DNA of 9,434 nt. Source: Escherichia coli (lineage in GTDB: Bacteria > Pseudomonadota > Gammaproteobacteria > Enterobacterales > Enterobacteriaceae). The stretch is from assembly GCF_003334255.1 (NCBI RefSeq), contig NZ_QOWU01000088.1. One strand, given 5' to 3'. The position numbers and the translations under genes are program-made. This document shows positions 2,051-4,557 of the stretch, piece by piece. Numbering within the stretch: position 1 is the first letter of the stretch; the number at the start of each line of letters is the position of its first letter. The notes beneath the pieces are model-generated. The model worked only from the letters and a program-made list of their open reading frames with translations. It was not told the DNA's origin and did not search any database.

Positions 2051-2866
2051 ATGTTTTCAATTCAACAACCACTACTGGTTTTTAGCGATCTTGATGGCAC
2101 CCTGCTGGACAGTCATAGTTATGACTGGCAACCGGCAGCCCCCTGGCTCACCCGTTTACGCGAAGCAAATGTTCCCGTCATTCTCTGTAGCAGTAAAACA
2201 TCAGCGGAAATGCTGTACTTGCAAAAAACGTTGGGGCTACAAGGTTTACCGCTGATTGCCGAAAATGGCGCAGTGATCCAGCTTGCTGAGCAATGGCAGG
2301 AGATAGACGGTTTTCCACGCATCATCTCAGGTATTAGCCATGGCGAAATCAGCCAGGTTTTAAATACGCTACGCGAGAAAGAACATTTTAAATTCACGAC
2401 TTTTGATGATGTCGACGATGCAACTATCGCCGAATGGACGGGATTAAGCCGTAGCCAGGCGGCGCTGACGCAGCTTCATGAGGCGTCGGTAACGCTAATC
2501 TGGCGCGACAGTGACGAGCGTATGGCACAATTTACCGCTCGTCTGAACGAACTGGGCTTACAGTTTATGCAAGGTGCGCGCTTCTGGCACGTCCTGGATG
2601 CCTCTGCCGGAAAAGATCAGGCTGCCAACTGGATTATCGCGACCTATCAACAATTGTCAGGCAAACGCCCAACCACACTTGGCCTGGGCGATGGGCCAAA
2701 CGATGCGCCCTTACTGGAGGTAATGGATTACGCGGTGATTGTGAAAGGGCTAAACCGTGAAGGGGTGCATCTGCATGATGAGGATCCGGCCCGCGTCTGG
2801 CGAACGCAGCGTGAAGGACCGGAAGGATGGCGTGAAGGGCTGGACCATTTTTTCTCCGCCCGTTAA
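2051..2866 (+). CDS. yedP: YedP, HAD-superfamily phosphatase (mannosyl-3-phosphoglycerate phosphatase family), 271 aa
   Basis: ORF begins [27 protein letters not shown], with HAD motif I (DLDGT) near the N-terminus. Recognised as YedP. TAA stop at 2864-2866. Confidence 0.9.
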
Positions 2867-4557
2867 GCGTTATCGCTCGCGAATACCCGATTACGCCCAG
2901 CCTGTTTAGCGAGATAAAGCCGACGGTCGGCCAGTGACTGGAATTGTTCAAAATCATAATCACCGGTTTCCTCGCTGCTACTTACCCCCAACGAGGCACT
3001 GATGCGTATCGTCGTACTCTTAGCAATCAACATCTCTTTTTCATTTAACTTCAGGCGAATACGTTCTGCGACTTCCGCAGCCTCCGTCAGACTCGCGCCT
3101 GGCAGAATCACACAAAACTCCTCACCACCGACCCGCCCGGCAACGTCCTGCGCACGCAAGGAACTGCTAATTAATCCGGCAGCATGAGAAAGAACACGGT
3201 CGCCCGCCTGATGACCAAAGCGGTCATTAATCGCTTTAAAATGGTCAAGATCGACCTGAATGACAGAAAAAGGATGTTGGTGCGTCTGACACAATTTAGC
3301 GAGCGGACGGGCTTTTTCGAACAGTGCGCCACGATTATATAAACGGGTTAAGGTGTCGTGCCACGCCTGCCACTGCAACGAACTTTGCAGAACATACATG
3401 TTGCTGACCATCCGGCGAATCACATACCAGGAGATGAGTAACATGGTGGTAAAGAGCGCCCACAGCAGGGTTAATGCAATGCTGATACTGCCGAAATCGC
3501 CGCGCACGCCTTCGCTTAACGTATGGACGCGCACCAGCACACCGTCGAAATGGTCCAGACGTTCCCAGCTAACATAGCGACTGTCCATACGAATGCCGCC
3601 CCGCGTGTCATGTTCCATTGCCTACGCCAGCAAGGCCAGTTCACGAGGATCAAAAATATTCCCTGTTGGATGGTCAGGATTGGAAGAGGTCAAAAATCTC
3701 AGCTTACTGTCATAGAGCTGATACTCACCATCGAGGTTTTTATCGATGGCGTTTCTTAAAAATTGCTGCATAGTACGCACGGGAATACTCATCCCCAGCA
3801 CGCCATACCAGTAGTTATTACTGTCTACCGGAACACTGACGGTAACCTGCGGTTCAGTATTGCTGGCGTGTTCCGGTTGCGAAGTGAACCAGCGTACCGC
3901 GCGGTGACGATTTTCTCGTTGTGAATGGCCAATAAACCAGGGTTGGGTGACATAGCCGTAATAACGCGTTGGAACATTGCGCGTAAACAAGGTCGGCTGC
4001 GTCGAAACGTAAAATCCGGCACGCGAGACATACATCGCCTGTTCAACCATCGACGAGGAGTTGTGCGCTAGTCGCAGCAAGTAACCAACTTCCAGTGCAG
4101 CGGTAATTTCATTGTCGAGGCTTTCATTTTCGCGAGACAGGAGATTCCCCTCGCTGACTAATGCATCCGACACGCCATTGACTGGCAGGGTGCGCCGTCG
4201 GTTGAGTTCGATTTTCCAGGCGTGCTCGTCGCGATGCTGTTCGAACTCGGTTACAGCATCACGCAGAGAGGTGAAATCCAGTGGCGCTATGAGAGCTTCG
4301 CGCATGCCATTACGCAAAAAGATCAGTTTGTCGACGTTATACTGCAAATGCTTATCGAGCGCGTTGGCTACGTTTTCCAGATGATTACGCTGGCTGGAGA
4401 TATAGGCATCTTCCAGCACCACTACTTCACGCCAGGTGAGCAAGGTGGAAAAAAGCAATACCACTATAAAGCAGAGATTAACGATATGACCAGGCCCCAG
4501 GCGGCGTGCGAGTTTTTTCAACCAGCTCTGGTTTTCCATTTTTGTCTCGTGCTGCAC
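2863..4557 (-). pseudogene. dgcQ: dgcQ (yedQ) diguanylate cyclase interrupted by an in-frame amber (TAG) codon at 3622-3624; sensor-half ORF 3622..4557 (311 aa), TM2+GGDEF-half ORF 2863..3618 (251 aa)
   Basis: The two tracked ORFs are in the same frame, separated only by TAG (3622-3624) and one Ala codon. 311 + stop + 1 + 251 gives 564 codons, the length I recall for intact K-12 DgcQ. The downstream half has the GGEEF active site ([14 protein letters not shown]) and an RxxD I-site (RAQD). The upstream half has TM1 ([18 protein letters not shown]) and the periplasmic domain. The 5' start is GTG at 4555-4557, or alternatively ATG at 4537-4539. Confidence 0.8.

Follow-up and report, generated by a model that had tools for sequence, protein, structure and literature searches.

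An amber codon in Escherichia coli dgcQ as a probable young loss-of-function allele with, at most, low-level expression of its GGDEF tail

Among the closest described relatives of the gene considered here are intact DgcQ and Salmonella STM1987, an arginine-responsive cyclase, which share with it both the locus (yodC-dgcQ-yedP) and the domains, namely a first transmembrane helix (TM1), a periplasmic CHASE7 sensor, a second transmembrane helix (TM2) and a GGDEF domain. In K-12, the arginine-dependent cyclic di-GMP (c-di-GMP) input that makes cells more sensitive to phage N4 passes through DgcQ. The stretch of E. coli DNA analysed here (contig NZ_QOWU01000088.1 of assembly GCF_003334255.1; 9,434 nucleotides, hereafter the window) differs from these systems in that the DgcQ polypeptide is interrupted by an amber stop at codon 312 (Q312*). 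We give a probability of roughly 0.6 to the reading that the window carries a young loss-of-function dgcQ allele whose restart or readthrough products, if any, are made at a low level and show no sign of being selected for. The main effect of Q312* would then be the loss of intact TM1-CHASE7-TM2-GGDEF DgcQ, an arginine-responsive, membrane-bound diguanylate cyclase (DGC). Ribosomes ending at UAG312 may occasionally reinitiate at AUG314 (3 nt on) or AUG324 (33 nt on), which would yield small amounts of an N-truncated TM2-GGDEF protein, and rare near-cognate Gln readthrough may add traces of wild-type DgcQ. Neither product is likely to be abundant.

Both the allele and the restart hypothesis have been known since 2014. 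Richter et al. (2014, EMBO Mol Med, PMC4287979) reported 'yedQ nt 934 CAG (Q) > TAG (STOP)' in the enteroaggregative E. coli (EAEC) strain 55989, in HUSEC041 and in the O104:H4 outbreak strain LB226692, confirmed the single-nucleotide polymorphism (SNP) by PCR resequencing in all three (Suppl. Table S1), noted the sequence TAGGCAATG, and predicted that translation restarts to yield a YedQ shortened at its N-terminus, its GGDEF domain left intact, with readthrough as the alternative. The window has the same nt 934 CAG>TAG change, the same TAGGCAATG context and the same entire dgcQ sequence as these strains, its gene being 100% identical to those of 55989, O104:H4, MLI023K1 and others; the window does not come from any of them, however, and over 8557 shared bases it differs from 55989 at 63 sites. 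An earlier note, made from the letters of the window alone, had proposed that the part of dgcQ past the stop could be expressed as a membrane-anchored cyclase freed of its sensor. This is plausible, coincides with the hypothesis of Richter et al. and is partly supported by the present analysis. No paper testing expression of the Q312* allele was found in the literature.

The nearest experimental precedent comes from Shigella. Ojha et al. (2024, PMC11327459), in which the pattern of a stop at 312 and an AUG at 314 is cited from Povolotsky and Hengge (2016), overexpressed the S. flexneri 2457T dgcQ pseudogene (nonsense codon at position 56, Met at 59) from pET28a in BL21 and found that a c-di-GMP reporter was raised and that two protein bands appeared, one of full-length size despite the stop; the authors were unable to separate restart from readthrough in this T7 overexpression setting. 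Like the window, S. flexneri dgcQ has a nonsense codon, an in-frame Met two or three codons on, and intact GGEEF and RAQD motifs. Unlike in the window, the interruption comes where the periplasmic domain begins, so that a Shigella restart product keeps the sensor and TM2 without TM1, whereas in the window the sensor is lost and TM2 is kept. The Shigella evidence also concerns overexpression rather than native levels.

A second point of comparison is provided by the coupled cistrons of E. coli (PMC3592434; Huber et al. 2019, PMC6728339), which, as in the window, place a stop and a start within a few nucleotides on one mRNA and in which translation of the first cistron is needed for that of the second. 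Most natural pairs of this kind retain a Shine-Dalgarno (SD) sequence within the upstream gene, whereas the pairing in the window is weak, and the arrangement in the window is an accident of a point mutation beside a native Met rather than an evolved junction. In E. coli reporters (Osterman et al. 2013, PMC3592434), second cistrons starting -4 to +3 nt from the upstream stop were well translated with an SD; without one, translation was 3-8 fold lower when stop and start overlapped (-4/-1 nt), 42-fold lower when they were juxtaposed and 10-fold lower at a 20-nt gap. Across a 3-nt gap, reinitiation in such reporters is allowed even in the absence of an SD, with yields reduced several-fold. Restarts after nonsense codons are known from the phoA work of Karamyshev (2004), as cited in Saito et al. 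(2020, PMC7538156), whose ribosome-recycling work itself argued that reinitiation is no major route in E. coli.

The dgcQ gene in the window (Table 1) differs from that of K-12 MG1655 at 24 of 1695 positions, and its frame is disrupted only by the C>T at gene nt 934, which turns Gln312 CAG into TAG; 12 of the 13 differences past the stop are synonymous. Besides Q312* no further lesion is present in the window gene, and most carriers are identical, the allele being too young for later decay to be judged. Every annotated TAG carrier examined has dgcQ labelled in RefSeq as a pseudogene or with 'internal stop'. In place of one uninterrupted chain of ~564 residues with the TM1-CHASE7-TM2-GGDEF order, the TAG leaves frames of 311 and 251 amino acids. 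The junction reads TAG GCA ATG (TAG at 3624-3622, ATG at 3618-3616), which leaves 3 nt between stop and start, and the second frame runs for 251 codons to a TAA at 2865-2863, just as the earlier note had described. Because this ATG is the codon of native Met314, also found in K-12 dgcQ, the frame is the gene's own tail and a chance open reading frame (ORF) is ruled out. Met314 is not conserved, orthologs having mostly I or V. The exact 251-residue protein has already been deposited (AFS56653.1 and others) and is found on at least 1000 contigs. The locus order yedI-yodC-dgcQ-yedP-yodD, with dgcQ between yodC and yedP, agrees with K-12 and 55989; the convergent dgcQ and yedP share 4 nt at their 3′ ends (window 2863-2866), as annotated in K-12 and relatives.

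CHASE7 (Pfam) is matched by residues 41-227 of the upstream ORF (E=4.1e-95), and on the 251-residue ORF the GGDEF model PF00990 is covered completely (model positions 1-161 of 161, E=2.6e-47) and TIGR00254 scores 213 bits. The tail also retains the transmembrane helix, GGEEF motif and RxxD site that had been claimed for it: TM2 is its hydropathy maximum (Kyte-Doolittle mean of 2.1 over 19 aa), GGEEF is invariant among 22 orthologs, and so are R468 and D471 of RxxD. On the DgcQ equivalog model NF011955 (NCBIfam; curated cut-off of 408 bits), the upstream ORF scores 541 bits over profile positions 1-311 and the downstream ORF 532.5 bits over positions 314-563, so that each half-frame exceeds the cut-off, compared with 1094.8 bits for an intact protein that has Gln312 and is otherwise identical to the window product (P0150).

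This intact twin still circulates, on 113 contigs. No full-length pseudo-revertant with K, E, L, S, W or Y at position 312 was found in a 15-billion-protein collection. We also considered whether the Phe at codon 539, where Leu is nearly invariant, represents decay after the stop. A 41-mer specific for F539 occurs in 216 genomes, compared with 210 for TAG, and F539 is thus almost perfectly linked to the stop; decay is rejected, since Q312 and F539 occur together in the intact full-length protein on the 113 contigs, and F539 is older than the stop. A Dcm hotspot as the origin of the C>T change, with dcm and vsr lying in the same window, was likewise rejected, as the ancestral context GCGCAGGCA is without CCWGG.

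The allele is widespread among E. coli. A 41-mer that matches only with the T is present in 210 of 5426 complete genomes (3.9%), and the exact 57-mer with TAG in 207 of the 5309 complete genomes having the site, leaving ~96% without it. The allele is carried, among others, by O104:H4, 55989, avian O78 strains, a strain named ST648 and isolates from pig, dog, river and sediment. A haplotype group made up of the strain named ST648, O78 strain 3, chicken strain 104, MDR_56 and CH4793 is near-identical to the window, with one or two differences, from gene nt 514 across yedP and yodD to dsrB, and has 44 differences from it upstream of gene nt 514. NCTC9040 shows the reverse pattern, with its breakpoint after gene nt 1319, and in APEC E19057 the breakpoint lies upstream of dgcQ. 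Over the common core, gene nt 514-1319, haplotypes A and B show no difference, and only two sites set NCTC9040 apart. As the TAG sits in mosaic haplotypes, at least three of them recombinant, the allele has moved between backgrounds by recombination. In CH4793, yedP and yodD are separated by an inserted IS200C transposase gene.

Further changes in dgcQ occur in other strains, on this allele and elsewhere. W331* (G992A, TGG>TAG; gene nt 992, window 3566) is found on the Q312* haplotype in a sublineage represented by 147 contigs, including KTE44 and UMEA 3271-1, and cuts the frame that opens at ATG3618 after 17 residues. In the TAG carrier NCTC9040, S292F affects a nearly invariant residue, and R305H is present as well. 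On other allele backgrounds, independent stops lie within TM2, namely L362* (TTA>TAA, gene nt 1085; eight complete genomes) and W366* (TGG>TGA, gene nt 1098). With these independent stops and the one at codon 56 in S. flexneri, dgcQ has been inactivated repeatedly. The second-site stop W331* argues against selection on the restart frame, and the pattern of repeated nonsense mutations is more in keeping with recurrent DgcQ loss than with a preserved sensor-less enzyme; one possible reason for such loss is that the DgcQ input sensitises K-12 to phage N4. Cellulose production is not decided by Q312*, because cellulose is still made by the TAG carriers 55989 and HUSEC041, and the cellulose defect of the outbreak strain has been traced in the literature to bcsE.

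The initiation signals ahead of the tail are weak, as the earlier note had anticipated. The sole SD-like bases are AGG at -5 to -3, two nt before the ATG, and the best SD pairing at ATG3618 reaches -3.2 kcal/mol at a wrong spacing of 1, compared with -5.5 to -11.6 kcal/mol at ten annotated starts in the window. Of the features of coupled cistrons, a start within a few nucleotides of the stop is present (3 nt) and a proper SD is lacking. The suggestion of an internal promoter found no support, with no sigma70-like site on the minus strand from 3620 to 4460. No special RNA structure was found at the stop-start junction (local fold z=0.83), and the Rho-utilisation signature past the stop (C/G of 0.69-0.81 over the first 180 nt) was not informative. 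De novo initiation at ATG3618 looks poor. With a weak SD and no promoter-like site nearby, the tail would be expressible only via termination-reinitiation across the 3-nt gap or via readthrough. Reinitiation is the realistic route, and we expect some restart product, as a small fraction of the output of an already modestly expressed gene. No ribosome profiling paper mentioning 55989, and no such data for TAG-carrying strains, was found in the literature.

A second in-frame start may be better placed. ATG3588 (Met324) is preceded at 3595-3603, 6 nt upstream, by the G-rich SD-like CGGGGCGGC, which pairs at -6.5 kcal/mol and is within the range of the annotated starts in the window. Some gene callers give 241-residue products starting at Met324, in a version of the fragment that carries D325N (P0009, P0011). 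Judged by these signals, Met324 appears to be a better candidate than Met314 for initiation by a free 30S subunit or a scanning ribosome, a point absent from the earlier papers.

Efficient reinitiation at AUG314 after UAG312, as put forward by Richter et al. and in the earlier note, would produce a membrane-anchored, sensor-less TM2-GGDEF cyclase with sensor-independent c-di-GMP output. The short stop-start gap, the intactness of the GGDEF domain with its GGEEF and RxxD motifs, the measurable level of SD-less reinitiation in reporters (PMC3592434), the activity of the overexpressed S. flexneri pseudogene (PMC11327459), the publication of the hypothesis (PMC4287979) and the wide distribution of the allele all speak for it, but the SD is weak, W331* is tolerated in a sublineage, and the Shigella data come from T7 overexpression in which restart and readthrough were not separated. 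The N side of TM2 carries two basic and two acidic residues and the C side a charge of +2 with no acidic residues, which would mildly favour the native N-out/C-in orientation; however, the 44-residue N-tail ahead of TM2, with 6 Arg and 8 acidic residues, would need to traverse the membrane with no signal sequence to guide it. The activity of GGDEF enzymes depends on dimerisation, to which the sensor and TM1 probably contribute. Since the polypeptide is interrupted, any product of 2863-3618 is without the CHASE7/dCache sensor needed for the periplasmic signal. Taken together, we consider an efficiently made, active cyclase of this kind unlikely.

An AlphaFold2 (AF2) model of full-length DgcQ, a low-confidence monomer (mean predicted local distance difference test score of 57), was used only for a rough placement of residue 312, which lies near the end of a helix (304-316) and is followed by three strands (319-345) and by a long helix (355-425) that passes through TM2 into the stalk. 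On this model the tail of a restart product would be an orphan piece, three beta-strands, of the membrane-proximal sensor module, which also counts against an active sensor-less cyclase. The same placement bears on a two-chain DgcQ, in which the 311-residue TM1-sensor fragment and the restart fragment, made off the same mRNA, would complement each other and remain arginine-responsive. Only residues 312-313 are missing between the frames, both halves match the equivalog model end to end, and coupled translation would co-locate the two chains. The break nevertheless appears to fall within the membrane-proximal sensor module rather than at a domain boundary, a low restart yield is expected, DgcQ offers no precedent, and W331* is tolerated. 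We regard such complementation as very improbable.

Amber readthrough, by near-cognate tRNA-Gln or by a suppressor tRNA elsewhere in the genome, would make the allele a hypomorph rather than a null, with low levels of wild-type DgcQ. Because the lost codon was CAG, insertion of Gln at UAG312 would restore the exact wild-type protein. Basal UAG readthrough in E. coli with normal release factor 1 is usually well below 1%, no suppressor is visible within the window, and the W331* sublineage would require two readthrough events. The option was named by Richter et al. (PMC4287979), and the full-length-size band of Ojha et al. (PMC11327459) from S. flexneri dgcQ is in line with it. As an account of the allele it seems to us distinctly improbable, less credible than efficient restart and more so than the two-chain enzyme.

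We therefore return to a young loss-of-function allele as the preferred reading. In its favour, a single C>T separates Q312* from an otherwise identical intact protein in circulation, and the 'internal stop' label in RefSeq, the weak SD, the lack of a sigma70-like site and the unremarkable RNA fold point the same way. The stops W331*, L362*, W366* and codon 56, the S292F and R305H changes of NCTC9040 and the decaying strain background of the window (IS1 in fliR, truncated yedJ) are consistent with it, as are, by analogy, the low reporter yields of SD-less reinitiation and the argument that reinitiation is minor in E. coli. We infer the low level of restart and its lack of physiological weight, alongside the direct observation of the allele, its anatomy, its spread and its weak initiation signals. 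Several observations weigh on the other side. A 3-nt gap supports coupling when an SD is present (PMC3592434), and S. flexneri dgcQ, with a similar layout of stop and then Met, raised c-di-GMP and gave two bands on overexpression (PMC11327459). The tail is undamaged not only in the window but also in each of the 15 other TAG carriers compared in full, and W331* was found in none of the 5426 complete genomes. With a core (gene nt 514-1319) near-identical across haplotypes, a conservation test would have no power on so young an allele. The frequency of 3.9% and the three or more recombinant haplotypes could reflect selection for a modified rather than a lost protein. Carried to its full extent, this would mean that Q312* is not null, that restart at AUG314 or AUG324 gives a signal-blind TM2-GGDEF cyclase, alone or re-associated with the 311-residue fragment, and that its altered output enabled the recombinational spread of the allele into several E. 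coli backgrounds; we think there is little chance of this.

Table 1. Features of dgcQ and of the DsrA gene in the window (positions count from the first letter of the window; residues of the downstream ORF are given as ORF residues)
Feature	Position	Strand	Remarks
dgcQ (yedQ) gene	2863..4557	minus	1695 nt, single internal amber stop; pseudogene in RefSeq relatives
Upstream ORF, 311 aa	3625..4557	minus	TM1 + periplasmic CHASE7/dCache-like sensor, amber stop at end
Amber stop TAG, codon 312	3622..3624	minus	CAG>TAG; C>T at window 3624
Candidate restart codon, ATG of native Met314	3616..3618	minus	3 nt past stop
Second in-frame ATG, Met324 (ORF residue 11)	3586..3588	minus	alternative restart/initiation codon
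Downstream ORF, 251 aa	2863..3618	minus	native DgcQ residues 314-564
TM2	3418..3486	minus	ORF residues 45-67, full-length residues 358-380; hydropathy maximum
GGDEF domain	2887..3366	minus	ORF residues 85-244; Pfam PF00990
RAQD (RxxD) inhibitory-site motif	3145..3156	minus	ORF residues 155-158, five residues ahead of GGEEF
GGEEF active-site motif	3115..3129	minus	ORF residues 164-168
Codon 539 TTC (Phe)	2941..2943	minus	Leu in all 21 orthologs aligned
DsrA small RNA	1766..1852	minus	full-length Rfam match, 102.5 bits vs gathering score 60; between yodD and yedP as in K-12

The genes of the window are rcsA, dsrB, yodD, DsrA, yedP, dgcQ, yodC, yedI, yedA, vsr, dcm and a truncated yedJ, and window 78-9434 is 100% identical to MLI023K1/K2 (human stool, Mali) and to strain PRO_A-1412-6M-A_ESBL. 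Positions 1-77 are IS1 terminal sequence (97% identical to the IS1 end of MLI023K1) and abut the last ~140 nt of fliR (78-217); the IS1 interrupts this flagellar export gene and should abolish motility. The IS1-fliR junction in one piece was absent from complete E. coli genomes and from GTDB representatives. At the opposite edge, window ~9361-9434 is the other kind of IS1 end and truncates the N-terminus of the HD-domain gene yedJ (ORF 8923-9351); in MLI023K1 the same IS1 cuts hchA too. IS1 copies thus flank the 9.3-kb segment on both sides. The genome is rich in IS1, the closest relatives having more than 30 IS1-matching places in each genome. A SNP specific to the strain lies at window 1518, 7 nt ahead of the ATG of yodD (1525) and on the 3′ edge of its SD; the window reads GAGGT there, compared with GAGGA in 8 of 8 other genomes checked. 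55989 and O104:H4 differ from the window at a second site near yodD, with A in place of the G at 1508.

To the published work this analysis adds the frequency and mosaic spread of the allele, the surviving intact progenitor allele, the better-placed Met324 start and the second-site stop. If the tail is expressed and active, DGC genes annotated as pseudogenes in EAEC, O104:H4 and related E. coli would go on contributing to the c-di-GMP pool, which controls cellulose, motility and the synthesis of the phage N4 receptor. If this is true, pseudogene calls would understate the signalling capacity of these bacteria, as Ojha et al. (PMC11327459) argue for Shigella.

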